Source of the DNA: a virus
Virus record (IMG/VR): IMGVR_UViG_3300028610_000246
Length of the DNA: 64,000 nt
Reading direction: 5' to 3' (one strand)
The notes beneath the pieces were generated by a model that was given only the letters and a program-made list of their open reading frames with translations, was not told where the DNA came from and ran no database searches. This document shows, piece after piece, positions 14,656 through 46,300 of the stretch. Made by a program: the position numbers and the translations under genes. Every line of letters starts with the position of its first letter. Position 1 is the stretch's first letter.

Positions 14656-16863
14656 ATGTACGATGTTTCGATCACAATCAGGTCTCGGAGTCCAAGTGTG
14701 ACAGTCTTAGATGCCGCACTGATGTTCTCAGAGAGGGGTTATTCAGTATTCCCCGTCCATGATAAGAATCCTCAATTAAAAAAGTGGCCCGATCGGGCTA
14801 CTACAGACTCTAAACAGATAAAGACCTGGTTTGATGGCAAATATAAGTACTGCAATGGATTCGGCGTATGTCCCAAGAAACAATGCTTAATAATAGACAT
14901 TGATGTTAAAGAGGGAAAAGGTGGTAAACAATCTTTAACAATTTTACGTGAAAAATTCGGCCTAAATATAAAGACTCTAGCAGTTAAGACTAAGAATAAC
15001 GGCCTGCATCTCTACTATAATTATCCCAATCTAGCTGACAATAAATATATAATGTCCATCACTAATTGGATGGATTTAGACGGTATAGATATACGTGGAA
15101 CTAGAGGCTTTGTAGTCGGACCTACATCCTTAAATGGCTATAAACTCATTCAAAATATGCCTATGGTAGACATAGGTCAGTTACTAGATAAGTTACCTAT
15201 CGGTAATATAGTTAAAGAACAAGTAAATACTCAGAGTGCCGAAACACTCATTGATCAGTCAGAAGTATCTTCATTACGTGGTACTATTCCTGAAGTAATC
15301 GAGTCTGGTGAGAGACACGATACTCTTATAAGGCTGATGGCTTCATGGGCCCGTAAGGTATCATATGATAATGCGGTTATTCTCTTAGAAGTAGCAGTCT
15401 CAAGGTGTGAAGGTAGTGATATACGATTACAAGACTACTTACCTCGATTAGATCAAGCATTCGAGAAATTCAAGCCAATGATAGAAAATCGGCTTGACTG
15501 GATGCTAGATAATCTCACACTAATAGAGTCTGGGCCTCGTGTATTCGATTCATCTAAACCAGCTAATGTATCGGTTTCGAAATTGATAGAGTGTCGTACA
15601 GCATTCGCTAATTGGATGATTTGGGAGGAGAAGGCCGACGGTTCGCAAAAGCCAGTTGCCGCATTTGATAGATGGATTAAGCACGTAGATCGAAAGACTG
15701 AGGGCTTTGTGGGTTATAAGCCAGTGAGTGATACAGTGTACTTCGATAATGTGTTGGGTACTGATGTAGTGAATATCTACAGAGGTCCAGAACACGTGAT
15801 GGTTGAAAAACCAGTATCTATAGACCCGTTTCTTGAGTTTATGAACTATTTACTCGAAGAAGACTCTAATATCATGTTAGATTGGATGGCTCATCTAGTT
15901 CAGAAACCATATATTAAGTTAATGTGGGCCCCAGTACTTGTATCTACACATGAAGGCTTGGGTAAGAACTTTTTATTCAACATAGTATCTCATATGATAG
16001 GACATTGGAATGCAAAGAACGTATCTGCCGGATTATTTAATAAGACTTTTAATATGTTCTTAACTTCGGCTGTCTTAATACTAATTAATGAGTTGGAAGA
16101 AGTAGACTCTCGTAAGAGATATGAGATAGTATCCAAGTTAAAGAGCTATATAACAGAGAGTGCTCAGACTGTAGAGCCCAAGGGCGTAGACGCATATTCT
16201 ACCGAAGTATTCTCTAATTTCGTCTTATTCTCTAATAGAGAAGATGCATTGCACGTAAAGACAGATTCTAGAAGATTTTTTGTTCATATTAATAATCAAA
16301 ATCCAAATCCTGAAGCTTACTATACAAAGTTATATGGGTGGTTGCAAGATGGGGGTTATGACTCAGTATTTAATTTATTAGCACAAAGAAATATAAAGGA
16401 ATTTAAATATGCCGGTAGAGCACCTCATACGACTAGTATGGATGTGATGGTAGAGGCCGGTCGCAGTAACGAAGAAGGCACAATAATAGAGGCTGTAGAT
16501 AATGAGTTTAGTATATTTGCGTCAGATCTTGTTACAAAAGACTCACTAGAATTCTTTATTCGTAATCATGTATTTAAGGGTCACGCAGTATCTGGCGGCC
16601 ATTTAAAGCAATTGATACGAAATTTATTTCAGTCCATTAGAATGAAGACTGGAGGTAGACGGGGTCGACAGATATATGTGCCGAAGATAGCTGAGGGCAG
16701 TGATCAAACCATAATTATAGAGGGCTTAAATATTAAACAAATTCTATACACGTGCCGAAATCATAACACGTATGACGATAGTACTAGTGGAGAGATACAG
16801 AGTGAGTACTACAAGATATTTCAAGCTAATAAATCGGAAACAGCCCTAAAGGTGGTGAAATGA
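14656..16863 (+). CDS. Bifunctional primase-polymerase with C-terminal helicase-like (DUF5906/NrS-1 type) domain
   Basis: IIDIDVK, TKNNGLHLYY and IDIRG..GFVVGP AEP motifs; RHDTL PriCT-like segment; GLGKNFL Walker A and LINELEE Walker B. Confidence 0.85.
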   Translation: MYDVSITIRSRSPSVTVLDAALMFSERGYSVFPVHDKNPQLKKWPDRATTDSKQIKTWFDGKYKYCNGFGVCPKKQCLIIDIDVKEGKGGKQSLTILREKFGLNIKTLAVKTKNNGLHLYYNYPNLADNKYIMSITNWMDLDGIDIRGTRGFVVGPTSLNGYKLIQNMPMVDIGQLLDKLPIGNIVKEQVNTQSAETLIDQSEVSSLRGTIPEVIESGERHDTLIRLMASWARKVSYDNAVILLEVAVSRCEGSDIRLQDYLPRLDQAFEKFKPMIENRLDWMLDNLTLIESGPRVFDSSKPANVSVSKLIECRTAFANWMIWEEKADGSQKPVAAFDRWIKHVDRKTEGFVGYKPVSDTVYFDNVLGTDVVNIYRGPEHVMVEKPVSIDPFLEFMNYLLEEDSNIMLDWMAHLVQKPYIKLMWAPVLVSTHEGLGKNFLFNIVSHMIGHWNAKNVSAGLFNKTFNMFLTSAVLILINELEEVDSRKRYEIVSKLKSYITESAQTVEPKGVDAYSTEVFSNFVLFSNREDALHVKTDSRRFFVHINNQNPNPEAYYTKLYGWLQDGGYDSVFNLLAQRNIKEFKYAGRAPHTTSMDVMVEAGRSNEEGTIIEAVDNEFSIFASDLVTKDSLEFFIRNHVFKGHAVSGGHLKQLIRNLFQSIRMKTGGRRGRQIYVPKIAEGSDQTIIIEGLNIKQILYTCRNHNTYDDSTSGEIQSEYYKIFQANKSETALKVVK

Positions 16864-17666
16864 GGCCTATAAAGACAAAGGAAATGAAACATGTATTACT
16901 GGCTGCACCTGGAGATGAGCACCGTGTTCAAGCACTGCCCATCAAAAGGTCCAATAACGGTGTATCTTCGTGTTGGAAAATGTCGTTTAAAGAGAGGGTA
17001 ATAGCTCTATTTACGGGTAAAATTTGGTTTGAATGTTTGGGTAAAACTCACCCACCCATTAAATTACGAGTATAAAGAAACTTTCCTGTAGGATTCAGTG
17101 TACTTATAGACTAACTTACGGTATAATAGTATGATGGATAAAACTGTACTTGCGAGCATCAGGCAAGATTCGTTGTCTAAGCACGCCGGAGCTATCAAGA
17201 AATATGGAGATAAACATTTAGATAGCTGTATACAGATCGTTATCAATAGACCCATAGACAGTAGACAAGTTAAGGTGGTATTTGAGGAGGGTGACGGATT
17301 TGGGCACGGTGTTAACGTGCCGCCAGACTGGCTAACAGAAGACCATATTCCTAAAGACAGAGTACCATGTCCTAGATGCGGTGGTGCCGGCAAACTAATA
17401 TTAAATGGTGTTGATTGTACAGAATGTAGAGGTACTGGTAAAATAGTTAAAGAATCTACAGAAAAGGTAATTTTACAGTGACACACTTAAAAGAAATTAA
17501 GTCCGAAGTAGACGAAATAGAGACATTTCTATTAGAAGCACTTAATGGCTTTCAAGAGCGCCATTCCAACTTACAAATAAATGGTGTAACTGTAGATCAC
17601 GTACAAGAATTTGGTTGTGAACGACAAGAAATCTTTATGGTAAAACTCGATATATCATTGATATGA
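16860..17666 (+). CDS. Three small genes (16860-17075, 17131-17481 with CxxCxGxG Zn finger, 17478-17666)
   Basis: CPRCGGAGK...CTECRGTGK DnaJ-type repeats. Confidence 0.65.
17099..17127 (+). promoter_or_regulatory. Promoter TGTACT-17-TATAAT
   Basis: Ends 3 nt before the ATG at 17131, so possibly a leaderless transcript. Confidence 0.6.
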
Positions 17667-19507
17667 TGGATTTTTACGCACTTGATATTGAAACTGCTTC
17701 TAATGTGAAGGGTAAAGAATTCGCATTAGAAGCCTGTAGATATACTACCGGTGAGGCTAAGATAACTTCAATAGCCATATCTGGGCCTGACGGATATTTT
17801 AGACAATTAGATGAACGATCAAATAATATGGACGATGTATCAGCCTTACTCTCTTATCTTAAGGGTAAGTCAGTATTCGCTCATAGAGCAGTATTTGATG
17901 TAGGCTGGTTAATAGCTGCATCTAGATACGAATTACTCCTGAATATTAAGTGGAGAGACACTGCTTTACTAGCTAAGTGGATATCTAATGGACAGGTTGC
18001 AGCTAAAAACCATATGAGCTATTCTCTTAGAGCAATTACTCAAAAATATGTAATGGAACATCCAGAATTACAGGATTTTCTCGACTTAAAGCGGGACGAA
18101 GTAACCGCCGGTGAAGACTACGAATATTGGTTAAAGCGTGGTAGCATGGATGCTACGTTTACTAGACTAATAGCTTTAGAAATGTGGAATTTATTACCTA
18201 AAGAACAGCGTGCTGGATATGTGTATGAGCAAGCTAACATAGTTCCAGTAGCTAATGCCTGGTTACAGGGTTTACACGTTAATAGTGAGAAAACACTAGA
18301 ATTAAAGCCTAGATTTAGTGCGTTTAAAAAGAAATTAGCTAAGGATATAGGTCAGACAGAGGCATGTTTAAGTTCACCTCAACAACTATCTCACTTATTA
18401 TTTAACGTCAAGAAATTTCCAGTACAAGGCAGAACTGCTAAGGGAAAACCCAGTACAGCGAAAGATAATCTTCTCTTATTAGAGGATAAATTATCAGGAA
18501 CTGAGGATGGTGAATTTTTTAGGACTATTCTTAATTTCAAATTATTGGCAACTATAGAATCAAAGTTCATTAATGGAATTAATAATAGTGTTGAGTATAA
18601 CGGATCTAATTTTACTCATGCTTTTCCTAATATCTTCGGAACATATACAGGTCGATTTACGTACGTAGCTAAAACTAAAAAGGTCCATGCAAGTGGCATT
18701 GCTAATCATCAACTACCTAGAAAAGGTCCAATACGAAAATTATTGAACGCACCTGAAGGATATGTAGTATGTGAATTAGACGGTGAGCAACAAGAACTCA
18801 GATTTGTAGGACAAATATCTGGTGATACAAATTTAATTACAGATTTTAATAGTGGTATAGACGTACACTCATCAATGACATCGTTTATATCATCTATACC
18901 ATATGAAGAGTTATTAGAGTTATTAGCGGCGGAAGATCCTAATGCAGTTAATTATCGTTATGCTGGTAAACTTCTCAACCTATCATGTCAATATCGTATA
19001 GGAGCTAAAGCCCTAAAATACAAATTTTTTACGACGTACGGAATTAACATTACTAAGGGTCAAGCGTATCAATATTTAGGCATGTATAAGAGACGATATC
19101 CTGGTATTAGAACGTATTGGGATGATGCCATATTATCAGCTAAACAATTGGGTTATGCTGAATCTATAAGTGGCCGACGATATGGATTGAAATTTTGGGG
19201 CGGCAGTGCTGAGTACATGACTGAACAATCTGCAATTAATTTTCCTATTCAAGGTAGTGGCGGTGATCATAAGAACGCCGCTATCTCTATTACAGCACGT
19301 AAATTTCCTGAAGCCATATTTACTCTTGATCTTCATGACGGTATATGGTATTATTTACCTGAAAAGAATGCTAAAGAATTAGCACTCGATATGAAGAATG
19401 AATTGAATCGTACAAACTGGTCTAGATTGTGGAATAGAGATATTAAATTACCATTACCTTTTGGAGTAAAAATCGGACCTACATTCGGCGAGGTTAAATC
19501 GATATGA
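17663..19507 (+). CDS. polA: Family A DNA polymerase with 3'-5' exonuclease
   Basis: LDIET ExoI, HRAVFD ExoII, TYTGRF, motif A LDGEQQELR, motif B RYAGKLLNLSCQY, motif C LHDG. Confidence 0.9.
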   Translation: MMDFYALDIETASNVKGKEFALEACRYTTGEAKITSIAISGPDGYFRQLDERSNNMDDVSALLSYLKGKSVFAHRAVFDVGWLIAASRYELLLNIKWRDTALLAKWISNGQVAAKNHMSYSLRAITQKYVMEHPELQDFLDLKRDEVTAGEDYEYWLKRGSMDATFTRLIALEMWNLLPKEQRAGYVYEQANIVPVANAWLQGLHVNSEKTLELKPRFSAFKKKLAKDIGQTEACLSSPQQLSHLLFNVKKFPVQGRTAKGKPSTAKDNLLLLEDKLSGTEDGEFFRTILNFKLLATIESKFINGINNSVEYNGSNFTHAFPNIFGTYTGRFTYVAKTKKVHASGIANHQLPRKGPIRKLLNAPEGYVVCELDGEQQELRFVGQISGDTNLITDFNSGIDVHSSMTSFISSIPYEELLELLAAEDPNAVNYRYAGKLLNLSCQYRIGAKALKYKFFTTYGINITKGQAYQYLGMYKRRYPGIRTYWDDAILSAKQLGYAESISGRRYGLKFWGGSAEYMTEQSAINFPIQGSGGDHKNAAISITARKFPEAIFTLDLHDGIWYYLPEKNAKELALDMKNELNRTNWSRLWNRDIKLPLPFGVKIGPTFGEVKSI

Positions 19508-24308: not shown

Positions 24309-24806
24309 ATGGCTAATCACACTGTAGACTGTAAATATTGTGGCGAAGACATACGTACTATGGGCGTAGTATCCGTTAAGGCACATGAAGATGTCTGTCC
24401 TAAAAAACCAGAGAAGATCGATGATCTTGTAGGTCAATACGTAGCTATTCGTGATAGATTAAGTGAAGTAAGAAAAAAGTGGAAAATATTCGAGGTCAAC
24501 CGTAAGGCTGATATGGAAAAGATCGAGGTTAAGTTACTAGAAAAAGCTAGAAAACTAGGCGTACAGAATTTTAAGACACAACATGGGACTGCTATGTGTG
24601 TAGATAAAGATTTCGCACGTGTAGGAGGTCCAGAGGGCTGGGAAAGATTGACTGCATATATGGTAGAGACAGGTGATTTTGGCCTAGTAGAAAAACGAGT
24701 GGCCAAACTTCATTTTAAAGAAGTAATGGAGACTAAGGGTATAGCACCACAAGATATCGGTGTTGAATATGTCATAGAACAAACAATACAAGTTAGGAGA
24801 TCGTAA
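24309..24806 (+). CDS. Conserved phage replication-cluster protein with N-terminal Zn finger
   Basis: CxxC...HxxxC, coiled coil, KTQHGT; precedes the SSB-like gene. Confidence 0.6.
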   Translation: MANHTVDCKYCGEDIRTMGVVSVKAHEDVCPKKPEKIDDLVGQYVAIRDRLSEVRKKWKIFEVNRKADMEKIEVKLLEKARKLGVQNFKTQHGTAMCVDKDFARVGGPEGWERLTAYMVETGDFGLVEKRVAKLHFKEVMETKGIAPQDIGVEYVIEQTIQVRRS

Positions 24807-25648
24807 TGGCTGGCAAAGAATTAGCTGTACCAAACTGGTTAAAAGCCAAAATAGAAGAAGGCGCTGTAACAGCGGACGCGAGTAAAATAGTTACCACTAT
24901 AGACTCTGTTCCACGTATCAGTCTAAAAGCTAGAAAATTTAACTTCATAGAAAATGGTGAAGTTATAGGTAAGGTGAATGATAGAATCCACGTAGTAATA
25001 GTCGGTGTACAACCAGAAAGTGGTATGGCTAAGACATTTTACGCTGGAGCTTATGAACCTGGAGATACGTCACCACCTGACTGCTCATCTTTTGACGGTG
25101 TTAGGCCTGATTCATGGATTAGTGTACCTATATCTGAAAATTGTTCTGTATGCCCTAATAATAAATGGGGCTCTGCTAAATCTATGTCCGGTGGTAAAGC
25201 TAAGGCATGTCGTGATAGTAAGAGATTGATCGTAGTTAATGCAAAAAATATTAGTGGTGGCACGGCGTTTGTACTCAATGTTACTGTGGCGTCATTAAAG
25301 AACCTAAGTAATTATGGTAAAGAATTAGCTAAACAGGGTATACCGTTAGAGGCGGTTATCACTACTATATCGATAGATGAAGACAGTGATTTCTCTATGT
25401 TAGAATTTGCTGCAGCAGGTGTATTGAAAGAAGATCAAGGTATGTTAGCTATTACCAGATCAAATGAGAGAGCTTGGGAGTCTGGCGCTAGCAGCTCTAC
25501 AGCCATAACAGATCAAAGTTCGGCTGTACAGTCACAGCCTGAGACGCCACCTGCCGCAGCACCGGCTGCGGCTGAAGCTCCACCGGTTGCGACAGAAGCT
25601 ACTGTCACTGAAAACGAAGACATAGATGATTTAATCAGTAACTGGTAG
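24806..25648 (+). CDS. Putative ssDNA-binding protein
   Basis: PDCSSFDGVRP...CxxCPNNKWGS...GKACR pattern; acidic tail EDIDDLISNW. Confidence 0.6.
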   Translation: MAGKELAVPNWLKAKIEEGAVTADASKIVTTIDSVPRISLKARKFNFIENGEVIGKVNDRIHVVIVGVQPESGMAKTFYAGAYEPGDTSPPDCSSFDGVRPDSWISVPISENCSVCPNNKWGSAKSMSGGKAKACRDSKRLIVVNAKNISGGTAFVLNVTVASLKNLSNYGKELAKQGIPLEAVITTISIDEDSDFSMLEFAAAGVLKEDQGMLAITRSNERAWESGASSSTAITDQSSAVQSQPETPPAAAPAAAEAPPVATEATVTENEDIDDLISNW

Positions 25649-25712
25649 TCTCTACTTTTCTCCGTTTAAAACTACTAGTATAGTTATATACTAGCTGAGA
25701 ATAGCAGACTAC
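25645..25712 (-). repeat. ~60-bp palindromic cassette, copy B (antisense to local genes)
   Basis: CTAGTATA-gtta-TATACTAG core; GTAGTC...GACTAC ends. Confidence 0.85.
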
Positions 25713-25813: not shown

Positions 25814-27475
25814 ATGTCTAGATTATTACTGTCTTTAGGCCACAATTCCAGTGCAATACTGGTAGACGGTGGTCACATAGTAGCTGGATACGAAGAAGAG
25901 AGATTGTCTAAAATCAAGAGTGATAGCACGTTTCCACGACTAGCTATCCAGCAATTAGAAAAATTGCACACAGAAATGTTTAAAGACATATCTGATATAT
26001 ACATATCTCACTGGTTCGTAGACGGTACGCTACCAGAAATTCATGATAAATATTTTGATCCACTATATTTCGAGTTTAACATACCCAAAGCTAGAATTCA
26101 TTCTGTCAGTATGGATTTTACACATCATGATGCTCATGCATGGTCAGCATGTTCATTTATTGGACCGACATTCTCTAAAGAAAATACACTTATAGTGGTA
26201 GCTGACGGATTCGGTAATTTCGGTGAAACTATATCGTTGTACTGGCTAGGACATCACAATGAGCCAAAACTTATCCGAAGGTCCTTTGGCTATCAGTCTA
26301 GTCTAGGACTCATGTATCAGTACGCTACAGCGTTTTTGGGATTAAAAGAGAACCAAGACGAGTATAAGTTATTAGGATACGAAGCTCATATAAGTGATTA
26401 TTTATTGGACGAGGAAATAGAAAAGCTCCAAAGGTCCATCATACATAACGCTGATGTACATTTAGAGATCATCAATAGTCTAGATACCTTCGATAGATAT
26501 GATCCGTTACTAGCACTCGACGCACTACCAGCACTCAGAGTTCACTACGGAATTCACTTTCAAAAGGTCCTAGACAAATTAGACATCAACGACGTCTACT
26601 CAGATGATGCTAGACGAAGTATTATTGCATATTACGTTCAGTCTAGATTAGAATATAGTATGAAGACTATAGTATCGAAATATAAACCTATGAACCTAAT
26701 ACTAGTCGGCGGACTATTCATGAACGTCAAGCTAAATAACGAATTATCTAAGATGGTTAATGAAATCAGTATAATGCCATTAGCCGGTGATCAGGGCGCT
26801 GCCATAGGTCTATATCAAGCCATGGAGTCTGATTTCATATGGCCCGACCACTTAAATTGGGGTACTAGAGAGTTTTATAGTATTTTATGTGATAGATTAC
26901 ATATGTTTATGTGTGATGATCCTGTAGAATACACTCAATTTATAATAGATTTATTGAAACAAGACAAGATAGTCAACGTAATAAAGGGTAATATGGAGTT
27001 TGGAGCTAGGGCTCTAGGTAGCACTACTACTCTAGCTCTACCCAGTAAAGAGAATGTAGAGTATATAAACGAGCTCAATGGACGTAATACTATAATGCCG
27101 ATGGCACCTGTAGTAACTAGACGATCGGCTAATAACTTATTTGAGAATGTCGATAGAGTGCACCAGTCTCTAGAATATATGGTATGTACTAGAGATTATA
27201 GAACTATACCCGAAGAGTGTATGGGTGCTGTCCACTCTCTTCCTATATTCAGACTGAATTCAGCATCTAATCTTACAGGACGACCACAAGTCATAGATTC
27301 TAATCACTGGTTATATCCTGTACTAAAAGTAATGCCGCATGAGATGTTGATTAATACATCCTTTAATGAGCATGGAATGCCAATTTGTTATAGTATGCAA
27401 GACATCTTACGATGTCATCAATATCAGTTATCTAACGATCTACAAAATAGGGTTTATACGGTGATAGTGACATGA
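25814..27475 (+). CDS. Carbamoyltransferase (NodU/CmcH/TobZ family)
   Basis: EEERLSKIK, HHDAH, DGFG, GLMY, EYKLLG, GGLFMNVKLN, GDQGAAIG, MEFGARALG, NTSFNEHGMP. Confidence 0.9.
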   Translation: MSRLLLSLGHNSSAILVDGGHIVAGYEEERLSKIKSDSTFPRLAIQQLEKLHTEMFKDISDIYISHWFVDGTLPEIHDKYFDPLYFEFNIPKARIHSVSMDFTHHDAHAWSACSFIGPTFSKENTLIVVADGFGNFGETISLYWLGHHNEPKLIRRSFGYQSSLGLMYQYATAFLGLKENQDEYKLLGYEAHISDYLLDEEIEKLQRSIIHNADVHLEIINSLDTFDRYDPLLALDALPALRVHYGIHFQKVLDKLDINDVYSDDARRSIIAYYVQSRLEYSMKTIVSKYKPMNLILVGGLFMNVKLNNELSKMVNEISIMPLAGDQGAAIGLYQAMESDFIWPDHLNWGTREFYSILCDRLHMFMCDDPVEYTQFIIDLLKQDKIVNVIKGNMEFGARALGSTTTLALPSKENVEYINELNGRNTIMPMAPVVTRRSANNLFENVDRVHQSLEYMVCTRDYRTIPEECMGAVHSLPIFRLNSASNLTGRPQVIDSNHWLYPVLKVMPHEMLINTSFNEHGMPICYSMQDILRCHQYQLSNDLQNRVYTVIVT

Positions 27476-27909
27476 GCGAACCAACATACGTAAGTATTAA
27501 TAGACAGATGCTGAGTGTAATTGACTTTAACTTCAATATACTCGGAATACCTAAAAGGTCCTTAGGCTTACAGTCGGAGGACGAATTTCGATTATCTATG
27601 CATCAGCTTAGAGAAGAAATTGACGAGATAGAGAAGGCCTTTTCTCATGGCGACTTTATAGGTGTATTAGACGGTTTAGTTGACTTGGAATACTTCTTGT
27701 TAGGTATATTCTATAAGAGTGGTATAAATGAACCAACACATGCAGAATTATTTGATACAGTACATCAAGCTAATTCACTCAAAAAAGTCGGAGTTAAAAC
27801 CGGTAGAGAGGGATATGGAGCGGCAGATGCTGTAAAGCCAGAATCATGGGTTAATCCAGAAATTAAATTTGCTAGAATACTAGATCGAGTAAATAAACGT
27901 GGATCTTAG
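27472..27909 (+). CDS. MazG/PRA-PH-like nucleotide pyrophosphohydrolase
   Basis: LREEIDE...VLDGLVDLEY acidic motif; VHQANSLK...KPESW. Confidence 0.8.
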   Translation: MSEPTYVSINRQMLSVIDFNFNILGIPKRSLGLQSEDEFRLSMHQLREEIDEIEKAFSHGDFIGVLDGLVDLEYFLLGIFYKSGINEPTHAELFDTVHQANSLKKVGVKTGREGYGAADAVKPESWVNPEIKFARILDRVNKRGS

Positions 27910-28420
27910 CAGTAAAAAACGCTCTATAATTGTAGAGGGTGCCGACGCTACTGGTAAATCGACATTAGCTACAAAACTTGGACAACAGTACGGTATATAC
28001 ACATTTCGTGCCGGACCTAAACCCACTAGTACTAAGCATGCAGAGATGTGTATGTTGTATCAGAATATGTGGTTACATAATCAGAGTTGTGTATGGGATA
28101 GACACACTGGAATAAGTAATGTGTGTAATCTACCTGGACTAAGTAAGCAATCTACACGTATGCATGCATACTACGTAAAAGAGGCTCTACAGTATTCCCT
28201 AATAATAGTATGTACTGCTGAAAATTTAGACTCTCATAACCAAGAATCCTATGAGACTGGTGCAGATTTAGAGCGTGTACGTAAGGAACACTCTACAGTA
28301 TCTAACAACTATAAGAAAATGGCACATGACCTTCCCAGTGTAATACGATACGACTTTAAAATAAAGCCGTTTCAAACGTTGATTGAGGAGATAGACCGTG
28401 CGATTTCTATCAGTATATAA
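27899..28420 (+). CDS. P-loop nucleotide monophosphate kinase
   Basis: IIVEGADATGKST and WDRH, thymidylate-kinase-like. Confidence 0.75.
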   Translation: MDLSSKKRSIIVEGADATGKSTLATKLGQQYGIYTFRAGPKPTSTKHAEMCMLYQNMWLHNQSCVWDRHTGISNVCNLPGLSKQSTRMHAYYVKEALQYSLIIVCTAENLDSHNQESYETGADLERVRKEHSTVSNNYKKMAHDLPSVIRYDFKIKPFQTLIEEIDRAISISI

Positions 28421-29210
28421 GGATTTAAAGAGTAAGGGCTCTATAGTCTCACCCAGAGATCAAAAGGTCCTAGAGATACAGGACTACATGTTTACTATGG
28501 GTCCAAGAGATCGATTTACATCGTATTCAGCACGACATCTTAACCTAGACTATGCTAAATTTGAAATGGTGTGGTATCTAACAGGTGATAAATTAGACAA
28601 ACGCATAACCAAATCAGCAGCCATGTGGTCAGATTTACGACAGCCGGATGGATCATGGTTTTCTAATTATGGCCAATACTGGTTCGGTGATCCACAACAG
28701 GGTTTTGAATGGGTTATCAATCAACTATTTTCGGATAAGGATAGTCGTCAGGCAGTTATTCCAATGTTACATAGACGTAATCTATTTACTGGGAATAAGG
28801 ACGTAGTATGTACTCAGTGTATATCATTTCGTATACGAGATAACAAGCTCTATATGAGTGTTAACATGCGGAGTCAAGATGCCATATGGGGTATGACTAA
28901 TGACATATTCTGTTTCTCAGTATTACATGAAATGATATACGTAGTTTTACGTGACGGTAAATATCATAATCTAGTTATGGGATCATATACTCATAAAGTA
29001 GACTCATTTCACGTATACGAAAAACACTTTGGTATGCTAGATAGAATTATAATCGAAGGCCACGGTGGATATACTGAAATATACTGTCCAGAAATATATG
29101 ATAATCGTGAAGTAATGAATCTTCTCAACTATAAAGCGAGAGATTGCGTAGCACAACATCTATTTACGGAGTGGTTATATGAGAATAGATACTCGGATGG
29201 ACATCGATGA
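28398..29210 (+). CDS. Thymidylate synthase homologue, dCMP hydroxymethylase type
   Basis: DVVCTQ...IRD...VNMRSQDAIWGMTND matches the T4 gp42 pattern, with Asp at the specificity position. Confidence 0.8.
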   Translation: MRFLSVYKDLKSKGSIVSPRDQKVLEIQDYMFTMGPRDRFTSYSARHLNLDYAKFEMVWYLTGDKLDKRITKSAAMWSDLRQPDGSWFSNYGQYWFGDPQQGFEWVINQLFSDKDSRQAVIPMLHRRNLFTGNKDVVCTQCISFRIRDNKLYMSVNMRSQDAIWGMTNDIFCFSVLHEMIYVVLRDGKYHNLVMGSYTHKVDSFHVYEKHFGMLDRIIIEGHGGYTEIYCPEIYDNREVMNLLNYKARDCVAQHLFTEWLYENRYSDGHR

Positions 29211-29658
29211 ATACTTTACTAAAATGGTTCGTCTTGCTAGTTTACGTGGTGCCTGTATTCGTCGTAAAACTGGCTGTATCCTTGTTAATGATCGCAATCA
29301 TGTTATTGCTACTGGGTATAATGGTCGTTCTAGCGGCGTGCGTAACTGTCTTCAAGACCCTTGCGGAGGTAGCGAAATGGATTCTGGATTGGGTCTGGAG
29401 CGATGCGAAGCTATACACGCCGAAGCAAATGCTCTTCTCCAGTGTCCAGATGTATTTACGATTAAAACGGTGTATTGTACGACTGCTCCGTGCATTCACT
29501 GCGTCAAACTCTTAACTAATACTTCTTGTGATAGAGTAGTATTTTTAGACACATATCCACATGAATCAGAAAGTGAAAAACTGTGGATAAAATCAAACCC
29601 ACTTAGATTGTGGGAACATTGTCCTGAGCAATTAGATTTTATCGGAGAACAGAGATGA
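29179..29658 (+). CDS. dCMP deaminase family protein
   Basis: TGYNG, HAEANA, TAPCIHC Zn motifs. Confidence 0.9.
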   Translation: MRIDTRMDIDEYFTKMVRLASLRGACIRRKTGCILVNDRNHVIATGYNGRSSGVRNCLQDPCGGSEMDSGLGLERCEAIHAEANALLQCPDVFTIKTVYCTTAPCIHCVKLLTNTSCDRVVFLDTYPHESESEKLWIKSNPLRLWEHCPEQLDFIGEQR

Positions 29659-30131
29659 CAGACGGCACAACACAAATGGATCCACTAATACTCATTAAAA
29701 GAGTTATAGATAAAGCAGGGATAGACGGAACACTCACAGAAAATGCAGCTAAATACTTTAACGATAAACTTACACAAAATAAAGAGATGAAGACCAAAAT
29801 CTCTACATTGGAGACTATGGTCGAATCAAGAACAGAAAAAATAGCCACGTTAGAAGCTAGTAACAATCGATTAATGACAGAAAATACTGAATGGCAGAAG
29901 CGAGAAACCGAACTAGAAACACGTGAAGATGAGATGCTCAGATTAGAGTTAACAGCTCAATTTGAGGCTGAACGAGTCACTGATCATAAAGAGATGTTCG
30001 GCCAGGTATTTCGCAATATCGAAGTGCGTCGTGACATATTTACAGCTTATCCTGGTTCAGATGGCGGGCAGTATCAAACACCTATAGCTGGCGGCGTAGA
30101 ACATAATGTAGAAACGACTAAAACAGAGTAG
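29655..30131 (+). CDS. Coiled-coil hypothetical protein
   Basis: Heptad-rich E/K/T sequence. Confidence 0.6.
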   Translation: MTDGTTQMDPLILIKRVIDKAGIDGTLTENAAKYFNDKLTQNKEMKTKISTLETMVESRTEKIATLEASNNRLMTENTEWQKRETELETREDEMLRLELTAQFEAERVTDHKEMFGQVFRNIEVRRDIFTAYPGSDGGQYQTPIAGGVEHNVETTKTE

Positions 30132-30184
30132 TCCACTATTCTCTGCTAGTATATAACTATACTAGTAGTTCTGAACGGAGTAAA
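30128..30184 (+). repeat. ~60-bp palindromic cassette, copy C, supplying the ligase RBS
   Basis: Reverse-orientation copy ending GGAGTAAA just before ATG 30189. Confidence 0.85.
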
Positions 30185-30188
30185 GCGG

Positions 30189-31271
30189 ATGCGTACGAAA
30201 GATGTTAAGTTGTACAAAGTAGACAAAAACGGCTCAGAGCGTCTCTGGACCATAAAAATATACGACAACACCATCGTTATCCAGTACGGTCAGTTGGGTG
30301 GAGCTATGCAGACGCAGACAGAGACAGTAGACAAGGGACTGGCTAGCCGCACTCTTGACGAACAGTTACTTAGTAGAGTAAAATCTAGGGTTAATAAGCA
30401 GCTAGATAAAGGTTACAATAAGACATTGGAAGATGCTCATAAAAATAAGGGTAAAGACGCGTCTGGAAACATCAAGCCAATGCTAGCTCAGCCGATCAAG
30501 AGAATATCGTATATAGATTGGGAAACTGCCTTTACTCAATGGAAGTATGACGGCCATCGTATGATGGTGGAGGTGCAAGATGGACAAGCTAGGGCTTGGT
30601 CAAGACTCGGTAAACCTATTACTTCAGTTCAGCATATTTTGGATCTTCTTTCTAAGCTTCCTAGCGGCACTATTCTGGACGGTGAGCTATACCATCATGG
30701 TACTCCATTACAGACAATTGCTTCTTGGGTCAAGAGGAGTCAACCTGAGTCTAACAATCTTATCTATATTATATTTGATATGGTACATCCCGCACCTTTT
30801 ATAGAAAGATTTAATGGTATACAGATGAGATTAAATTCACGTGATATGAATAATAATCCACATATTCAAATAGCTACTACTGGTAAGATTAATAACTCTG
30901 AAGCCATAGGTCCTAATCTCAGATATGCTATAGATCAGGGATATGAGGGCTTGATACTACGACACAGTACTGCGTCATACGAAATAGGCACAAGGTCCAG
31001 ATCGTTAGTCAAGATCAAGCAAATGTTCGATTCTGAATTTAGATGTATAGCAATAAATGAGTCAGCAGACGGGTGGGCCGTCCTACAATGTGAAGACGGT
31101 GCGGGTCGTAAGTTCAATGTATCTGCACCAGGAACCATAGACGATAAGAGGGAAGTGCTCTATAACGCAGACGAGTATATCGGTCGAAGCATCACAGTAG
31201 AATATAGTCAATTGACTAAAGATAAAATACCGTTTCATCCCGTAGCCATTAGATGGAGAGAAGACGTATGA
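30189..31271 (+). CDS. ATP-dependent DNA ligase with WGR-like N-terminus
   Basis: KYDGHR, LDGEL, IFD, EGLILR, VKIK and OB-fold TVEY motifs. Confidence 0.9.
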   Translation: MRTKDVKLYKVDKNGSERLWTIKIYDNTIVIQYGQLGGAMQTQTETVDKGLASRTLDEQLLSRVKSRVNKQLDKGYNKTLEDAHKNKGKDASGNIKPMLAQPIKRISYIDWETAFTQWKYDGHRMMVEVQDGQARAWSRLGKPITSVQHILDLLSKLPSGTILDGELYHHGTPLQTIASWVKRSQPESNNLIYIIFDMVHPAPFIERFNGIQMRLNSRDMNNNPHIQIATTGKINNSEAIGPNLRYAIDQGYEGLILRHSTASYEIGTRSRSLVKIKQMFDSEFRCIAINESADGWAVLQCEDGAGRKFNVSAPGTIDDKREVLYNADEYIGRSITVEYSQLTKDKIPFHPVAIRWREDV

Positions 31272-31800: not shown

Positions 31801-32310
31801 ATGGTCAACAAACTACTTAATAATCCACCACTAGTTCGGATAGTGATATACATACTCATAGCCATAATGTTACTCTGGTTATGGCTCGGTGAAAGGGCAG
31901 AGGCGGAAACAATTGTTGGCATTGGGCCCGCGTTTGTTTCTGGACATTACTCAGATACGCTGGCGATCACCATAAACGAGCGCTTCGGCGGACGTTGGGA
32001 AATCGGCCTCATGCTCGTTGGAGAACAGACCACTAAACACGATCAGTTCGTCGGTAACAACTTTGCCTTTGGCGCACGTTTGATTGTGCCATCGCCTAAG
32101 AAGCGATTTGAACTTGCCTTCGGTGGCTCAGTTTGGGCCGAACAAAATACTGTAGTCTCTTGCGAAAGCCGATTTACACTTACAATAGGCATAGCATGGA
32201 ACATTCGTCGCGGACCGTGGAATCTGGCGATAGACCATGCGTCGACTGCTGGAGTATGCAAACCAAATCCTGGACAGAACATACTATCGATCAGGAGAAA
32301 ATTCGGATGA
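31801..32310 (+). CDS. PagL-like (lipid A 3-O-deacylase/acyloxyacyl hydrolase) outer-membrane beta-barrel
   Basis: Signal peptide ending AEA, amphipathic strands, HASTAGVCKPNPGQN like the PagL HxSNAG..KPNxG motif, near-terminal Phe. Confidence 0.7.
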   Translation: MVNKLLNNPPLVRIVIYILIAIMLLWLWLGERAEAETIVGIGPAFVSGHYSDTLAITINERFGGRWEIGLMLVGEQTTKHDQFVGNNFAFGARLIVPSPKKRFELAFGGSVWAEQNTVVSCESRFTLTIGIAWNIRRGPWNLAIDHASTAGVCKPNPGQNILSIRRKFG

Positions 32311-32678
32311 GTAACTACGGAGAAAGTCTTGTACTAGACCTAATCGACTGCAATCCAGAGACGTTTACTCGCATAAACATCAAGATGTTGTGCTGTGGAC
32401 TTTGTGATATAATTGACATGGAACGGGAGGACCTATATTTTTGGGATTATGAGGGCGCGCAGGAAGAGTATCAAGAGGCTCCCGACCACCTGAAGGGGAC
32501 ATCTGCCGTTCAATTCATCCGTACTAGTAGTCTAGTAATTCACACTTTAGATGTTACACGTCAGGTATTCATAGACTTATTTTCTTGTAAAACATTCGAC
32601 CATAACGTTGTCGCAGAATATGTGACAGTATTTTTTGAGGGGAAGATCAATGCACAACATTCATTCACGCGCGGCTGA
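32307..32678 (+). CDS. speD: S-adenosylmethionine decarboxylase-like pyruvoyl proenzyme
   Basis: LVLDLIDC, GTSAVQFIRTSSLVIHT (cleavage site), IDLFSC; true start is MSNYG at 32307. Confidence 0.75.
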   Translation: MSNYGESLVLDLIDCNPETFTRINIKMLCCGLCDIIDMEREDLYFWDYEGAQEEYQEAPDHLKGTSAVQFIRTSSLVIHTLDVTRQVFIDLFSCKTFDHNVVAEYVTVFFEGKINAQHSFTRG

Positions 32679-33675
32679 TCTGGTAGGAGTTCTAATTATC
32701 CCTACAGGAGTCGGCGCTGCTATAGGCGGCCATGCTGGCGATGCTACGCCTGTGGCTAAGTTACTGGCGGCCTGTTGTGATTGGCTGATCGTTCATCCAA
32801 ACGTAGTCAATGCATCTGACATAAACGAAATGCCTATAAATGCACTCTATGTAGACGGCTACACTCTCGATCAAGTACTATCTGGCAAAGAAGGGCTTAA
32901 AAAATGTCAGCGCCAGAATACGATTCTAGTAGTGGCTAATGATCCGATACATGGCAGTACCGTTAACGCAATTAATGCAGCACGTACGACTATAGGTGCT
33001 GACATACAGCTAATTGCACTCAAAACTCCTTTGACCATGAGTGCACATATTGATACAGACGGAACTGCATCTGGCGTCGTAACTGGAGTTGATGAGTTAG
33101 TAGAGCAGCTCAAATCTCTAGAATATGACGCGTTAGCTATTCATACCCCAATTATTTGTTCAACAGACGTAGAAAAATATTATTGGGACAATGGCGGAGT
33201 GAATCCATGGGGCGGAGTAGAGGCCAGAGCGTCTAGAATGATATCCACAAGGATTCGAAAGCCAGTAGCACATGCACCACTAGACCTTGAAGATAAGCCG
33301 GAGTTTAGAAACTTATACTGTCAATCAGTAGATCCACGTATGGCAGCAGAAGTAATATCTAACTGCTTTTTACACTGCGTCCTAAAAGGATTGCATGACT
33401 GTCCTTTGCCTACAAATTATATACCAGAGGCTGATTGGACGATAAGTGATATTGATTTCATCGTTACTCCCTTCAATGCTTACCCTAATGATGCTTTATT
33501 TGTAGTGAAGAGAGGTGCTAGACTGATTCGAGTAGCTGAAAATATAACAGTATTTGACGATATGCCGTATCTACCTGGAGGAGAGAGCGTAGCGAATTAC
33601 TTAGAAGCTGCAGGGTTAATTGTGTGCATGAGAGCTGGCATAACATCAGATTCAGTACGCTTATTAACTCGATAG
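32650..33675 (+). CDS. DUF3326-family protein
   Basis: LIIPTGVGAAIGGHAGDA, HPNVVNA, NPWGGVEA, AAEVI, NYLEAAG; likely start 32650. Confidence 0.75.
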   Translation: MHNIHSRAADLVGVLIIPTGVGAAIGGHAGDATPVAKLLAACCDWLIVHPNVVNASDINEMPINALYVDGYTLDQVLSGKEGLKKCQRQNTILVVANDPIHGSTVNAINAARTTIGADIQLIALKTPLTMSAHIDTDGTASGVVTGVDELVEQLKSLEYDALAIHTPIICSTDVEKYYWDNGGVNPWGGVEARASRMISTRIRKPVAHAPLDLEDKPEFRNLYCQSVDPRMAAEVISNCFLHCVLKGLHDCPLPTNYIPEADWTISDIDFIVTPFNAYPNDALFVVKRGARLIRVAENITVFDDMPYLPGGESVANYLEAAGLIVCMRAGITSDSVRLLTR

Positions 33676-37368: not shown

Positions 37369-40300
37369 CTAAACGAAAGCTATTTGATGATCAACTCCAT
37401 CTTCACCTGTAAACCATAATTCGATTGGATTAGTGTTTTTCATCCAAATTTGTCCATATGCTGTAACATCAGTATCTGCCGCCGCCTGCTCTCGCAAGAA
37501 CAATGAGCCTTGATTAGAAAATCTCGCCTCTACAATAAGGCCGGGTTCCCAGACATTAAACGAACCGTCATCACTAAAGCCTGCGTAGCCTTTAATTCCA
37601 TCTGTATTTGAAAATGCTATTGCGGAACCACCAGTTGTACTGATGCGATTGACCTGCAATGCAGCACCAAAAGCAGAGTCACTAAAAGTCCAGAGATCGG
37701 TTATTGTTTCTTGTACTGTTTTATCAACAAGATCACCTTCGGTGATACCGCCAAAGGAATCAGCAGTAACAGCCGTTGGAAAATTGATTCCATCAATCAC
37801 AGCGCCAGTACGAGAAACGTCAAATACACTATTACTTACAGACGTTGCATCATTCCATGCTCTAAGTCTAAAGGTCTCAGCGTCCGCCTGAATTGACCAT
37901 AACTGATTATCTGCCGCTGCATCGGTTTCATCAAACCACAGACGCGGTGTAACTGCTTGGAACGTATATGCAGTACCAGAGAACGTTTCTGCGACTGTCT
38001 TATCTATTAAGTTCGCCTCAAGAATAGCCCCGTAAGACGTAGCCGTAATTGCATCGAAGTCTGCATCGACTGTACCAGCGGCTATATCTGCAAAGCCAGT
38101 GATGTTCCATGTCGTACCACCAATAGTGTCGGCTAAGGTAAAATCAGTGCTTACATTATCGTAGTCAAAGCGAACGTCACTGCCACTACCGAACCTAAGC
38201 TGGGTGCCATCAACAAAGATAAAAGGATTACCTGACTGAAAGTTGATCCCGGAGAATGTCCAACCACCGCTGATTGATGCGTCAGCAATCTTACTAACTA
38301 GGTTTGCTTCTAGTATTCCACCGTAGCTAGTACCAGTTATTGCATCAAAGTCAGCATCAACCGCTCCAGCTTTAATTGCCGTAATGCCCGATATGTTCCA
38401 ATCGACGGTGGCGGCGTGGGTAGTATTTACATCTGTGCCGTCATGACGTGTTATCTGCGCTCCAGACCCACTGTCTATAACCTTAAATCCACGGCCTGGT
38501 GGAGCAACAATGTCTCCAGTTAAACCCGTGATATTTAAGTCAGCCGTACCAGTGATCGCCCAGTTTAGGTCTGTAGCTGAGAGGTCTATAGCAGACTTCT
38601 GCGAGCGTGTGTCATTGAAAAGATCAAATGAACCGTCTTGTCTGAACCAGTAGCCCACCTCCTCCACGATGCGCCATTCAGTTGAACTGACACGACGCAG
38701 AGTTAGCTTGGCCCCAATCTCATTAGAGTCGATAGACTTACCAACACCTGCGCTACCTGGCTGTATATTACTAGAACCGTCAGGAGTAATACGTAGAAGT
38801 TGTGCGGCCTTAACTTCAAAAGTAATTAACGGCCAACCCGTGGGCAGAGCGTCTAGAGTAACTACTACTGTTGCGACAGCACCCTCATTAGTAACTGTAC
38901 GAACGTAGTTCGACCAACCCTGCGTATAGCTGATAGTCGCGTCATGCTGAATTAGCCCCCGTATATCCTCGACGTTACCCGTTGCGTTAAAGTCAACCAT
39001 TTGATTGCCGTCGGGCTGTCCTTCGCCATTAAGTAGCGAAAAGTCAACGTCCAGAATAATGTCTGACCCTACCGTTCTAACGTCATCCACAAATAAATAA
39101 TTAGTAACAAGCGGCGTTTCTCTATCGTCGATAACCTCTGCGTCGGTAATTCGTACATTACCAAGATTCGCGGCTCCAGTATCCGGGGCGGGTGCGTACA
39201 CAATAAATGCGGCGCCCAACGATGCCGACGTAGACCCTACAGAGTTCGGACGGATTGCTTTCGGATGCTCTATCTCAATGAGTGGGCCGAGGGCATCATA
39301 GTTACGGGAGACAAACATGAAATTTGCGGTGTCTATTCCAACTGGATTGATAACTTTAATAGACCCCGTTATACGACTGCCCACAGTAAAAGATTGTTTT
39401 ACATTAAGATTACCTACCGACAAGGCGATTGGAGATTCGATATCTACGGGATTCTGCACTACAATGTTGACTGTGGACATGAAATTATAGCTGTCTCCTA
39501 CGTCCCAATCATTATCTGTTCCGCCCGTGAGTACGGCAGTTATTGTGGTTGCGGTATTTGCCGTGATAGGACCAGAGCTGCCGTCGTCCAGATTCACAAT
39601 AACTCGCCCCACAAACTCGTTTGTGGCCCACGACTCACCACTGTCGCTTAATGTGGCAGCACTTGCTCCACCGTCATGTGTGCCAATAGCCTCTGGGAAA
39701 TTATGAATATCAATTATAAGACCTGCACCCGTGTTACTTTTAGTATGGATGTCGTTCAGTACAATACCCTCAAGCAGATCGTAGGAACTGTTGGGTTCTA
39801 TGTCTAGGCCAAATTCAGGGGCAGTGCCTGCACTATTTCTTAGAACTGCACCATTCACAACAATATCTTTACCAGCAGTAATAGATAACCCACCACGTCT
39901 ATTATCATCTGCCGAAATATTTTCAAGGTATATATTGGAACAATTTCTAGTAGTTGCACCATTACCAATTGTAAAGCCGTCTCCACCAGATTTGTTTGCG
40001 GCTACATCCCGTATCGTTATATTATTTGCACCACGTAACGCAAAAATGTGTCGGAATTCTCCTGTAACAGGCTTAGTGATATACTCCCAAACTGAATTAT
40101 TTCCTTCGATGGAGCAATTCCCAACATCTCTGTATCGCATCCAGCCTCTGTCGGCAGTCATTCCTGTATTCCGCATCGTAACACCGGCGTCACAAAGAAT
40201 GTGCGTATTAGCTCCTACAAGAACACCGTCGGTTGCCTCAATGGCAGATGTCCATTGATAAATACCTGCGGGAACGCGAATAGTGAAACCACCAGCGATC

Positions 40301-43300: not shown

Positions 43301-46300
43301 ATATCAAATGAAGGTAAATTCGTCCTAATTCTATGTCCATGCCAAAAGTATCCCTCACTAGTCCTAGGCGGAATACCTGTAGTTAAATTGTCTTTAAAAA
43401 ATCTTACTGTATTAGAACCATTAGGACCGGTACCTAAACTCATTGTAATAGTACTAGTACCGTCAGGTATACCTGACGTTACACTGTCCTGTGTAAATTC
43501 ATTCCATAATCGTCGAGTATCAGCTACATTCGCTGCAGCATATAGACTACTAGATAAATCGAAATCGGGGTCAATAATGGGTTGTTGCTGTCTATCGAAT
43601 AATCCACTATGTACTATAAACGATACATCTGTACCCGACGTAGTGGGAATGGTTACAGTAGGATCTGGATCTACAGAATCTATCAGCACTACACCAAACT
43701 TATACGCTTCAGCCGTTCCCGTACCAACTATATCAAATATCTCATCTATTGAAAATATAAACCATCGTGTACTAGATATACGATATGTAATCCTATCACC
43801 AAGATTAAGATCAGAAAAGAATAGAGTAAAATTCAGTCCAGCCTTATCTTTCTTATTTATTAGTATGGCATCAGTTAAGTGAAAATTATTCTGACTACCT
43901 GAGGTATCAGTTCCTCTGGCCGTCAACATAGCGTATCTAGACTGGCCGGCGGCCAGCTGCGTAGTATCTAAATCATCATATATAAGTGTTACATGTTGGC
44001 CAGGTTCACCCGTACCACCACCAGTAACCGAGTTAACGGTTTCAGACACACTAGAATCATCGCCGCCAAACGAATAATCAAATTTAACACTAAACGTCTC
44101 AGTACCCGACCCAGTTGGAGTTATCGTAATACGAGAAATATTTAAATCACCTAATGGATGCGTAGTAACTGCGCCAGTTATAGTTCCATCAGTACTATTT
44201 AGAGTTAATCTGTACCCCTGACGAGCTACAGCTGATCCGCCCTGTACGAACGTAACATCTAAATCAGTAGTAAGTTGTGAAGGTGTCCAAGGTCCATCAG
44301 TACCTTCTCTACGCCAAGCTAAACCATTTTCAGGTTCAATAAATCCATTAACACTGTTTCCACCATCTAAACCATCTGCAATATCTACTAAAGTTATAGT
44401 ATCAAGAACAGTGCCTCCTACACCGTCTTTCATAGTAATGACTATGTCATTACTTATATTTCCAGAATCCAATATACCTGTATAACCGTCACTACCTGTC
44501 TGATATCCATTAGCTACCGTGAGCTCGAGATCACCAGGGTCAAATAGCTTAATAGTTCCTGTAGATAATAAAGTATCGACACCGCCCTCAATCTTATGGG
44601 CTTCAACTGTAAGTGTACCTGTACCATTATGAATAGCTGTACCGTTAGTGGGTTTGATATAAAATACAGTAGTCGTTGATACGAGCGGTGTAGCGGATAT
44701 ACCTGCAGTAGGACTAACTGGAAAATATATAGATTGCTGTAAGTATATGTCTACTACTCTAGCCCACATAAATCTAGTAACAGTATCAATATATGGAATA
44801 AAGTAATCTAATATGGTAGTAGAGTTTAGATCAGACGGAAGAATGAATTGAAGTGTCTGAGGCACTGGCGACACTGCATCTCTATCATTCACCGTGTTAA
44901 CATGCAATTCTATATATGAACTATTTCTTATCATAATACTAGTAAGATCTGCAGTAGCTATTATACCACCGGCCACACCAACAGCAGTTAATCCATCTAC
45001 AGCCGGCGGATTTCTAGTAGCACCACCTACAGTATGTAGTATTACATTTGACCATACAGACTGAGCTCCGAATTCTGTAACGGTTCTCATCTGTATTTCG
45101 TATTCAAGACCTATTTCTACATTATCGATATTTATAAACGCTTGACTAGCGTTAAATGTAGAAATATACATCCACGTGCCTAATACTGGCGCTTCAGTTA
45201 TATTAAATATTCTATATCTTAAATCCGCAGTTAACGAGCCCCAAGCCTCAAGATTATTAGAAGTTATTTGCCATGTAACGATAATACGTGGAATCAAAAC
45301 ACCTGAACCGTCTACAAAAAATACGTTTTGATCACTATTAGCCTCTAAGCCAAATGGTGGGCTCGGACGTAGTGTAGTCGGATCTGGGGGTAGGGTTATA
45401 TTGGGGTTAAACGGTGGAATAACACCTGTATCAGCATCTAATATGGCAGGCGATAGATCAAGACAGGTCAATCTAGCAGTTAAATTATCTTGTGGATCTA
45501 TGGCGATTATAAGTAAATCTTGTGTCTCACTACCTACTTCACCTATCATATACAAATCACCGATTTGTATGCCCGCAGGTATAACGGGTGTAAATGTATG
45601 GCTAAATAGATCGGGACCGCCTTGTAGCGTTAGATCCTCTATGACAGAAGTTCCGTCATCCAATCTAACTCTCATCACATAGTTAGTACCTCCATCTAGA
45701 GTTACAGCTTCATCGGTAGTAATTACATTACCTACAACATCTTTAATTCGACCATAGCTATTACCCCATAACGGTATATCATGTGCTGATTTAATGTGGT
45801 CACCACGTTGAGCCACAATATGCTCAACATCAGCATTAAACGTATAAACTTCAGGTCGCAATCTAGCGGCAGCCATTATATATCTGGCCGTCTTCCAAGC
45901 AAAGTCTGCATCAGTTATACCAGCAAGTTGTAAGACCTCAAATTCAGTAGCACTACCTGCATCAAACCCATCATCAAAGACTATCATTTCATCTTCTTGA
46001 TAGCCTGAATCCTCAGAATTAAATCGCACCTTAAATGCATGTGGAAAATTAACAAATCTTTTAACAGAGTTGAATCCCCAGCTATTTCTAGGCGTAAAAT
46101 ATTGTACTGGAGTAGGTGTAGCTTGTTCTAATATGACAGTCCATTTACCATCTCTATTAGATACTGATGCACGACCTACACTAGCTGCACGTGTTATAGC
46201 TCGAAATACAGACGTCTTGTAATCTACGACTTCATCATAAAACCGACCTTCAACAGTGTTTTCAGTAGCCCAATCAGCTAGATCATCCAGTATAATTTTA

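Follow-up and report, generated by a model that had tools for sequence, protein, structure and literature searches.

A five-gene cassette in the replication block

This analysis concerns a five-gene cassette, predicted to modify cytosine, in a 64,000-nucleotide (nt) stretch of viral DNA held as IMG/VR record IMGVR_UViG_3300028610_000246. The whole stretch, hereafter the window, represents most of the genome of an uncultured siphovirus, a tailed phage, of subsurface metagenome origin; the carbamoyltransferase gene of the cassette is recorded on a 67,237 bp contig. The cassette occupies 25814–29658 on the + strand and comprises the following genes, with protein lengths in amino acids (aa).

25814..27475, + strand, carbamoyltransferase of the TobZ/NodU type, 553 aa (Pfam, PHROG and PDB matches, motifs)
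27472..27909, + strand, MazG/PRA-PH pyrophosphohydrolase, 145 aa (Pfam, PHROG and PDB matches, motifs)
27899..28420, + strand, small P-loop kinase with a thymidylate-kinase fold, 173 aa (weak PHROG match, AlphaFold/Foldseek)
28398..29210, + strand, thymidylate synthase (TS) homologue, predicted deoxycytidine monophosphate (dCMP) 5-hydroxymethylase, 270 aa (PF00303, diagnostic residues)
29179..29658, + strand, zinc deaminase of the dCMP-deaminase family, accessory member, 159 aa (PF00383, motifs)

Consecutive genes overlap by 4, 11, 23 and 32 nt, and all five sit within a + strand replication block that includes genes for a primase-polymerase/helicase (14656–16863), a family A DNA polymerase (17663–19507) and an ATP-dependent ligase (30189–31271). 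The structural genes lie on the − strand; they include those for a tape-measure protein and for a protein of 3470 aa that carries GpJ-type tail domains. An earlier note on this DNA had listed five overlapping genes over the same interval; each was found at these coordinates and on this strand with family matches that, as sequence comparisons, are far beyond chance. A near-identity DNA search with the cassette against 50,697 phage records returned no match.

The carbamoyltransferase

The first gene encodes a two-domain enzyme (Carbam_trans_N, PF02543, E-value 4.9e-22; Carbam_trans_C, PF16861, 3e-23; Pfam) that combines a Kae1-like N domain with a YrdC-like C domain, aligns with phrog_1601 over residues 2–537 (7e-63), and is matched in PDB sequence searches by the novobiocin carbamoyltransferase, GdmN and TobZ. 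The motifs H104-x3-H108, D131 (DGFG), D326 (GDQG), EFGARALG (395–402) and NTSFN (514–518) are intact, and we take them to map to the metal-site (HxxxH/D/D) and YrdC-type residues of TobZ, a mapping assumed after Parthier et al. 2012. Architecture and conserved motifs are shared with TobZ, NodU, NovN and GdmN, and a carbamoyl-adenylate mechanism is presumed; the substrates of those enzymes are antibiotics or Nod factors, unlike the 5-hydroxymethylcytosine (5hmC) predicted here. The window carbamoyltransferase is not a NodU orthologue, since it reaches 43 bits with the NCBIfam NodU equivalog, for which the cut-off is 1000.

Within a family of more than 1200 database members at E <1e-20, the window enzyme shares 37–40% identity with carbamoyltransferases from phages Xp15, Effie, HHU4 and Bacteroides BF503P2, likewise encoded beside TS homologues, and 23–27% with those of cyanophages, pelagiphages and jumbo phages in the same search. 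On these sequence grounds, we predict that it is a 5-hydroxymethylcytosine carbamoyltransferase.

An enzyme of this kind has been characterised. In cytosine-modified viral contigs, carbamoyltransferase most often co-occurs with thymidylate synthase, PRA-PH and dCMP deaminase domains, and the pairing of carbamoyltransferase with TS is confined to modified contigs (MetaGPA; Yang et al. 2021, eLife 10:e70021, PMC8670742). A carbamoyltransferase purified from a TS-bearing contig required carbamoyl phosphate and ATP; in vitro it converted 5-hydroxymethyldeoxycytidine (5hmdC) in single-stranded DNA (about 100%) and 5hmdC triphosphate (5hmdCTP; about 60%) to 5-carbamoyloxymethyl-dC, was inactive on the triphosphates of 5-methyldeoxycytidine (5mdCTP) and 5-hydroxymethyldeoxyuridine (5hmdUTP), and accepted RNA 5hmC (Yang et al. 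2021, PMC8670742). The same study linked TobZ positions W408, G421 and R423, which differ between modified and unmodified contigs, to cytosine specificity. The window resembles this published cassette in the two-domain carbamoyltransferase, in neighbours that comprise a TS homologue with Asp177, PRA-PH and dCMP deaminase, and in its location in a tailed phage. It differs in that the window enzyme comes from a different, uncultured lineage, and in the kinase between PRA-PH and TS, which has no Pfam match and so falls outside the co-occurring Pfam domains listed in 2021.

Diagnostic residues of the TS homologue

The TS homologue matches PF00303 (5.5e-16), and its best PDB matches are the MilA CMP hydroxymethylase (7.9e-18) and T4 dCMP hydroxymethylase (2e-16), with E. 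coli ThyA at 1.3e-6; identity to T4 gp42 is only about 28%. Diagnostic positions are numbered below as in E. coli ThyA. The catalytic C138 (ThyA C146) and E56 (ThyA E58) are invariant in the alignment. The peptide RSQDAIWGMTND is present, and its final Asp, D169 of the window protein, aligns with T4 gp42 Asp179 and ThyA Asn177. Further diagnostic residues are D135 at ThyA L143, T139 at H147, and D161 at D169, where the Asp of ThyA is kept.

By a published criterion, Asp at N177 specifies a cytosine substrate. This Asp alone is insufficient, because the Xp12 5-methyl-dCMP enzyme also has it; both Xp12 (5-methylcytosine, 5mC) and RB69/DLP3 (5-hydroxycytosine) have TS-fold enzymes that carry Asp at N177 and use dCMP, with a deaminase often alongside. 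The remaining positions separate the window enzyme from both kinds. Acidic residues at L143 are associated with a hydroxymethyl product instead of a methyl one (2026 paper), and the window enzyme carries Asp there and a Thr directly after the catalytic Cys, as in T4 gp42; Xp12 has Asn at L143 and Pro at H147. N177D and L143E occur in flavin-dependent 5-hydroxy-dCMP (5hodCMP) synthases too, enzymes long taken for hydroxymethylases, but they are marked by Asn in place of ThyA D169, which all 5hodCMP synthases tested possess (2026 paper). As for the sugar, the MilA study assigned Ala and Lys to ribo-specific enzymes and Ser and Arg to deoxy-specific ones; the window protein has the Ser/Arg pair of the latter (S159 at ThyA S167, R117 at R126'), where the ribo-specific MilA has Ala176 and Lys133.

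The identical signature occurs in all nine carbamoyltransferase-linked TS homologues examined, including those of five metagenomic contigs (L006–L010), and BLAST gives these homologues 70–92 bits with T4-type gp42 and 41–55 bits with the Xp12 enzyme. By the published diagnostic residues, this carbamoyltransferase-linked clade falls cleanly among the hydroxymethylases. All published sequence criteria thus indicate a predicted dCMP 5-hydroxymethylase and speak against the window protein being a methylase, a CMP enzyme or a 5-hydroxy-dCMP synthase. The earlier note had read dCMP specificity from the Asp opposite ThyA Asn177 and T4 Asp179; the alignment confirms that placement, and the L143, D169 and Ser/Arg positions agree with it.

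MazG-like enzyme, kinase and deaminase

The MazG/PRA-PH protein is matched by PF01503 (4.4e-7), phrog_18404 (8.9e-18), phrog_671 (5.4e-13) and the 'putative NTP pyrophosphohydrolase' of PDB 3nl9 (1.3e-4), and has the metal motifs E49-x-x-E52 and E92-x-x-D95 of an all-alpha NTP-PPase domain. By analogy, it may be a deoxycytidine triphosphatase (dCTPase) that excludes dC and supplies dCMP.

The kinase was without a match in Pfam, NCBIfam and a PDB sequence search even at E 1, and is matched weakly by the phrog_761 'thymidylate kinase' (2.6e-7). It possesses the P-loop EGADATGKST and a DR motif in WDRH. An AlphaFold model built with 18 homologues (pLDDT 87, pTM 0.83) found as its top Foldseek PDB matches SPbeta YorR/BSU20280, thymidylate kinases and deoxyadenosine kinase, with E about 1e-5 and TM 0.5–0.63. 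The model supports, at the level of fold, an identity as a nucleoside monophosphate kinase. The protein is homologous to an Xp15 open reading frame (ORF) at the equivalent position (25% identity, 2e-8), and contigs L006–L010 each have an ORF with the same motifs there; the kinase, though undetected by Pfam, belongs to the conserved core of the cassette. Analogy with T4 gp1 suggests that it would phosphorylate 5-hydroxymethyl-dCMP (5hmdCMP).

The deaminase matches PF00383 (7.1e-18) and phrog_174 (2.1e-31), as well as the dCMP deaminases of S. mutans (4.2e-15), human (3.3e-9), cyanophage S-TIM5 (6.2e-8) and T4 (1.2e-7) in the PDB, and it carries the zinc motifs HAE (80–82) and PCIHC (104–108). 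Its presence is variable: gene calling gave no dCMP deaminase in the TS–ligase interval of L007 and L010, and in L008 a ThyX (Thy1) gene is inserted between the TS homologue and the deaminase. Since the deaminase is missing from two of the five contigs and separated by ThyX in a third, we regard four genes as the core and the deaminase as an optional helper. No canonical TS was found in the window, and the deaminase therefore probably supplies deoxyuridine monophosphate (dUMP) for deoxythymidine triphosphate (dTTP) synthesis by the host enzyme.

Relatives of the cassette

Synteny from the polymerase (PolA) to the ligase is shared with Xanthomonas phage Xp15 (Alachuavirus, AY986977) and Acinetobacter phage Effie (MW176033), at 34–51% amino-acid identity. 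The common order is PolA, PD-(D/E)XK nuclease, SNF2 helicase, two small ORFs, carbamoyltransferase, MazG, kinase, TS, deaminase and ligase. Xp15 and Effie differ from the window phage in their hosts and in genome size (54–56 kb, against about 67 kb here). The carbamoyltransferases of L006–L010 are 40–69% identical to that of the window, and in all five contigs a helicase gene and two small ORFs precede the carbamoyltransferase, while PRA-PH, a kinase of about 170 aa and TS follow it in that order.

In Bacteroides phage BF503P2 (L011), a B. fragilis phage, the carbamoyltransferase lies upstream of two annotated dCMP hydroxymethylases (7456–8262 and 10336–11016) with a dUTPase between them. The first of these TS homologues reads 'LPYD', as does the Xp12 enzyme, yet has Asp at the L143 position.

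The 280-aa ORF directly upstream of the window carbamoyltransferase (24806–25648), which has an acidic C-terminal tail, is kept at that position in Xp15 and Effie, with ORFs of similar length (about 280 aa) in the same place in all five contigs. It was set aside as a candidate modification enzyme; it belongs to a large phage family without a stated function (phrog_27714; Pam3_Gp34/DUF5895-like).

A proposed pathway to 5-carbamoyloxymethylcytosine

Taken together, a model for the cassette emerges. We consider it likely, judging from the encoded proteins, that the cassette serves pre-replicative cytosine replacement followed by O-carbamoylation, leading to 5-carbamoyloxymethylcytosine (5cmdC), and that it is the system of Yang et al. 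2021. What was observed are the gene identities, motifs, diagnostic residues, kinase fold and synteny; from these we infer all substrates and the final base.

In the proposed pathway, the MazG-like enzyme would convert dCTP to dCMP, excluding dC from phage DNA and feeding the hydroxymethylase. The TS homologue would transfer the methylene of 5,10-methylene-tetrahydrofolate onto dCMP at C5 and hydrate it to 5hmdCMP, which the kinase would convert to the diphosphate 5hmdCDP and the host nucleoside diphosphate kinase to 5hmdCTP. The phage PolA would presumably incorporate 5hmdCTP. The carbamoyltransferase would form carbamoyl-AMP from carbamoyl phosphate and ATP and transfer the carbamoyl group onto the 5-CH2OH, with single-stranded or nascent DNA, or 5hmdCTP, as the acceptor. 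The deaminase, an optional component, would most likely turn dCMP (or dCTP) into the uracil nucleotide, feeding dTTP synthesis through host ThyA and draining the dC pool. The route from dCMP through 5hmdCMP and its triphosphate into DNA, with O-carbamoylation, had been put forward in the earlier note and is supported by the hydroxymethylase signature, the nearest solved relatives, and the motifs and gene context of the carbamoyltransferase.

Phage T4 encodes the dCMP hydroxymethylase gp42, the dNMP kinase gp1, the dCTPase gp56, the dCMP deaminase cd, and glucosyltransferases. The predicted pathway parallels the 5hmC pathway of T4 in its dCTP-removing pyrophosphatase, TS-fold hydroxymethylase, dedicated kinase and dCMP deaminase, followed by group transfer to the hydroxymethyl, and the TS homologue has the diagnostic residues of gp42. 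It departs from T4 in that carbamoyl rather than glucose would be transferred and in the Tmk-like fold of the kinase; the placing of MazG in the role of gp56 is an analogy from T4 biology.

Some observations weigh against this assignment. The likeness of the window carbamoyltransferase to the characterised enzyme was judged by eye from long common blocks such as THHDxHA, DGFGN and SLGLMYQYATxFLGLK..DEYKLLGY, and the characterised enzyme is absent among the best 120 database matches. The TS homologue has Gln at ThyA Arg127, a feature of its close clade (L006, L007); it is probably tolerated, and unlikely to be a defect, because it is conserved in those two contigs. Regarding the role of the deaminase, phage deaminases beside Asp177 TS homologues can prefer modified dCTP (recent preprint).

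Alternative readings

Among the alternatives, the one that we would take most seriously, while thinking it unlikely, is that 5hmdC DNA is made and the carbamoyltransferase acts in vivo elsewhere, on RNA 5hmC, a pool metabolite or a host surface molecule, so that the virion DNA contains plain 5hmC. TobZ/NodU enzymes have many small-molecule substrates, the characterised enzyme accepts RNA 5hmC too, and the 'Nol-like' carbamoyltransferases of cyanophages and pelagiphages lack such cassettes. The window gene, on the other hand, overlaps the next cassette gene by 4 nt and keeps a position that is fixed in every relative sampled, across hosts, and its product is closer to the TS-linked phage group than to the cyanophage, pelagiphage and jumbo-phage enzymes, with the identities given above. 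Less credible is a reading in which 5cmdC is not the end product and the carbamate is an intermediate, or one decoration, tailored by an AdoMetDC-like and DUF3326 pair and a sulfotransferase-like ORF; we place slightly lower still the proposal that these accessory genes (32133–33675; 11515–12084) would add to or replace the carbamate to give an undescribed cytosine hypermodification. AdoMet_dc (2.3e-10; 32133–32678) and DUF3326 (8.1e-70; 32635–33675) matches do lie just downstream of the ligase, the candidate pavABC cluster for the polyamine pavettamine includes the gene of a DUF3326 protein, PavB, and Atlas leads point toward a sulfotransferase fold for 11515–12084. These genes are nonetheless outside the overlapping block, and DUF3326 is unmatched in the 50,697 phage records and hence shows no recurrent link to modification cassettes. 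We know of no chemistry by which a carbamate of this kind in DNA would be displaced. After the ligase, where the window has the AdoMetDC-like/DUF3326 pair and the PagL-like gene, L006 and Xp15 lack these genes, and no evidence links the extra tailoring candidates of the earlier note to the cassette.

The other alternatives concern the deaminase and the TS homologue. It seems highly improbable that the deaminase acts on 5-hydroxymethyl-dC nucleotides and that thymine is partly replaced by 5-hydroxymethyluracil, giving two modified pyrimidines. Of 56 active phage deaminases, more than 60% favoured 5mdCTP and/or 5hmdCTP, 5hmdU was formed in vivo by seven candidates (recent preprint), and a UDG-like gene stands at 8116–8733, its Pfam match weak (0.0031); yet all seven 5hmdU-producing deaminases had as partners TS homologues with a predicted, in five cases confirmed, 5mdCMP product, where deamination leads to dTTP, and the window deaminase resembles conventional dCMP deaminases. 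We find it even harder to credit that the TS homologue is a dCMP methyltransferase yielding 5mC DNA as in Xp12. The Asp at N177 is common to the Xp12 enzyme, but the acidic L143 position and the Thr at H147 are as in T4 gp42, where Xp12 has Asn and Pro, and the BLAST scores to Xp12 are below those to gp42; moreover, 5mC offers a carbamoyltransferase no hydroxyl, and the characterised enzyme is inactive on 5mdCTP. The least probable of all is a flavin-dependent 5-hydroxy-dCMP synthase, with the carbamoyltransferase acting on 5-hydroxycytosine: N177D and L143E would fit such a synthase, but at D169, where every tested 5hodCMP synthase has Asn, Asp is retained in the window enzyme and in each of its carbamoyltransferase-linked relatives. 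Both the methylase and the synthase readings fail because the diagnostic residues differ.

Standing of the 5-carbamoyloxymethylcytosine reading

The earlier note's reading of an intact pathway is supported, but it overstates the novelty: the cassette is as in Yang et al. 2021 and is present in phages sequenced as early as Xp15 (AY986977). The enzyme family and the gene arrangement were already described in 2021, and what is new is one more intact, divergent genome. This genome joins a widespread phage lineage predicted to carry 5cmdC, a base so far demonstrated only in vitro; searches of a literature library for native 5cmdC returned the 2021 in vitro paper and no report of this base from virions of any isolated phage, and none was found on the DNA chemistry of the Xp15 and Effie isolates. 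A paper on Stenotrophomonas phage AXL3, which mentions Xp15, describes restriction-resistant DNA and makes no mention of a carbamoyltransferase; it adds nothing here. The cultured relatives Xp15, Effie, HHU4 and the Bacteroides fragilis phages are the obvious systems in which to establish the native virion base and what the base protects against. The practical value is modest.

Neighbouring features and other genes in the window

Around the cassette, the following features complete the block.

17663..19507, + strand, family A DNA polymerase (PolA; PF00476 2.9e-43, phrog_17 1.6e-62)
25655..25712, no strand, inverted repeat, left arm, in the 165-nt gap 5' of the carbamoyltransferase gene
29655..30131, + strand, sixth ORF of the block, 158 aa, 4-nt overlap with the deaminase gene
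30128..30185, no strand, inverted repeat, right arm, between the sixth ORF and the ligase gene

PolA, the 'unusual PolA' of the earlier note, is 38.6% identical to the Xp15 polymerase with conserved synteny and is ordinary for its lineage; no evidence links it to the cassette. The sixth ORF (29655–30131) has a significant match in neither Pfam nor PHROG; a 155-aa ORF stands in its place in L006, a correspondence of position only. The arms of the 58-nt inverted repeat flank the six-gene block 4415 nt apart and are 90% complementary, and the core of the repeat is itself palindromic. Scans for promoters and terminators gave no operon-defining signal above the shuffled background. Two copies of AAGGTCCTT.GGCT are found within the cassette coding sequence (26278–26298 and 27555–27575), both including the heptamer AAGGTCC.

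Downstream of the ligase, a PagL-like lipid A 3-O-deacylase domain (31801–32310; Pfam 2e-7) suggests a Gram-negative host. It is followed by the AdoMet_dc-like ORF (32133–32678), which is also matched by phrog_3125 and overlaps the full-length DUF3326 ORF (32635–33675); the latter has no match in the PDB.

On the − strand, the 189-aa ORF at 11515–12084 is without a Pfam, NCBIfam or PHROG match; in Atlas it neighbours sulfotransferase-family clusters, viral and bacterial, by feature and by structure (score 0.94; TM about 0.55), which serve as a lead only. The product of 8116–8733 (− strand) shows a UDG-superfamily match below the Pfam cut-off, a C-terminal zinc ribbon and a phrog_12275 match (6.7e-14), and this gene could bear on uracil arising from the deaminase. 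The 3470-aa ORF (37369–47781, − strand), with GpJ FNIII-A and Phage-tail_3 domains, encodes a very large protein of the tail tip or central fibre; its GpJ-type tail domains led to the rejection of an N4-type virion RNA polymerase. Its L006 counterpart is 3192 aa long.

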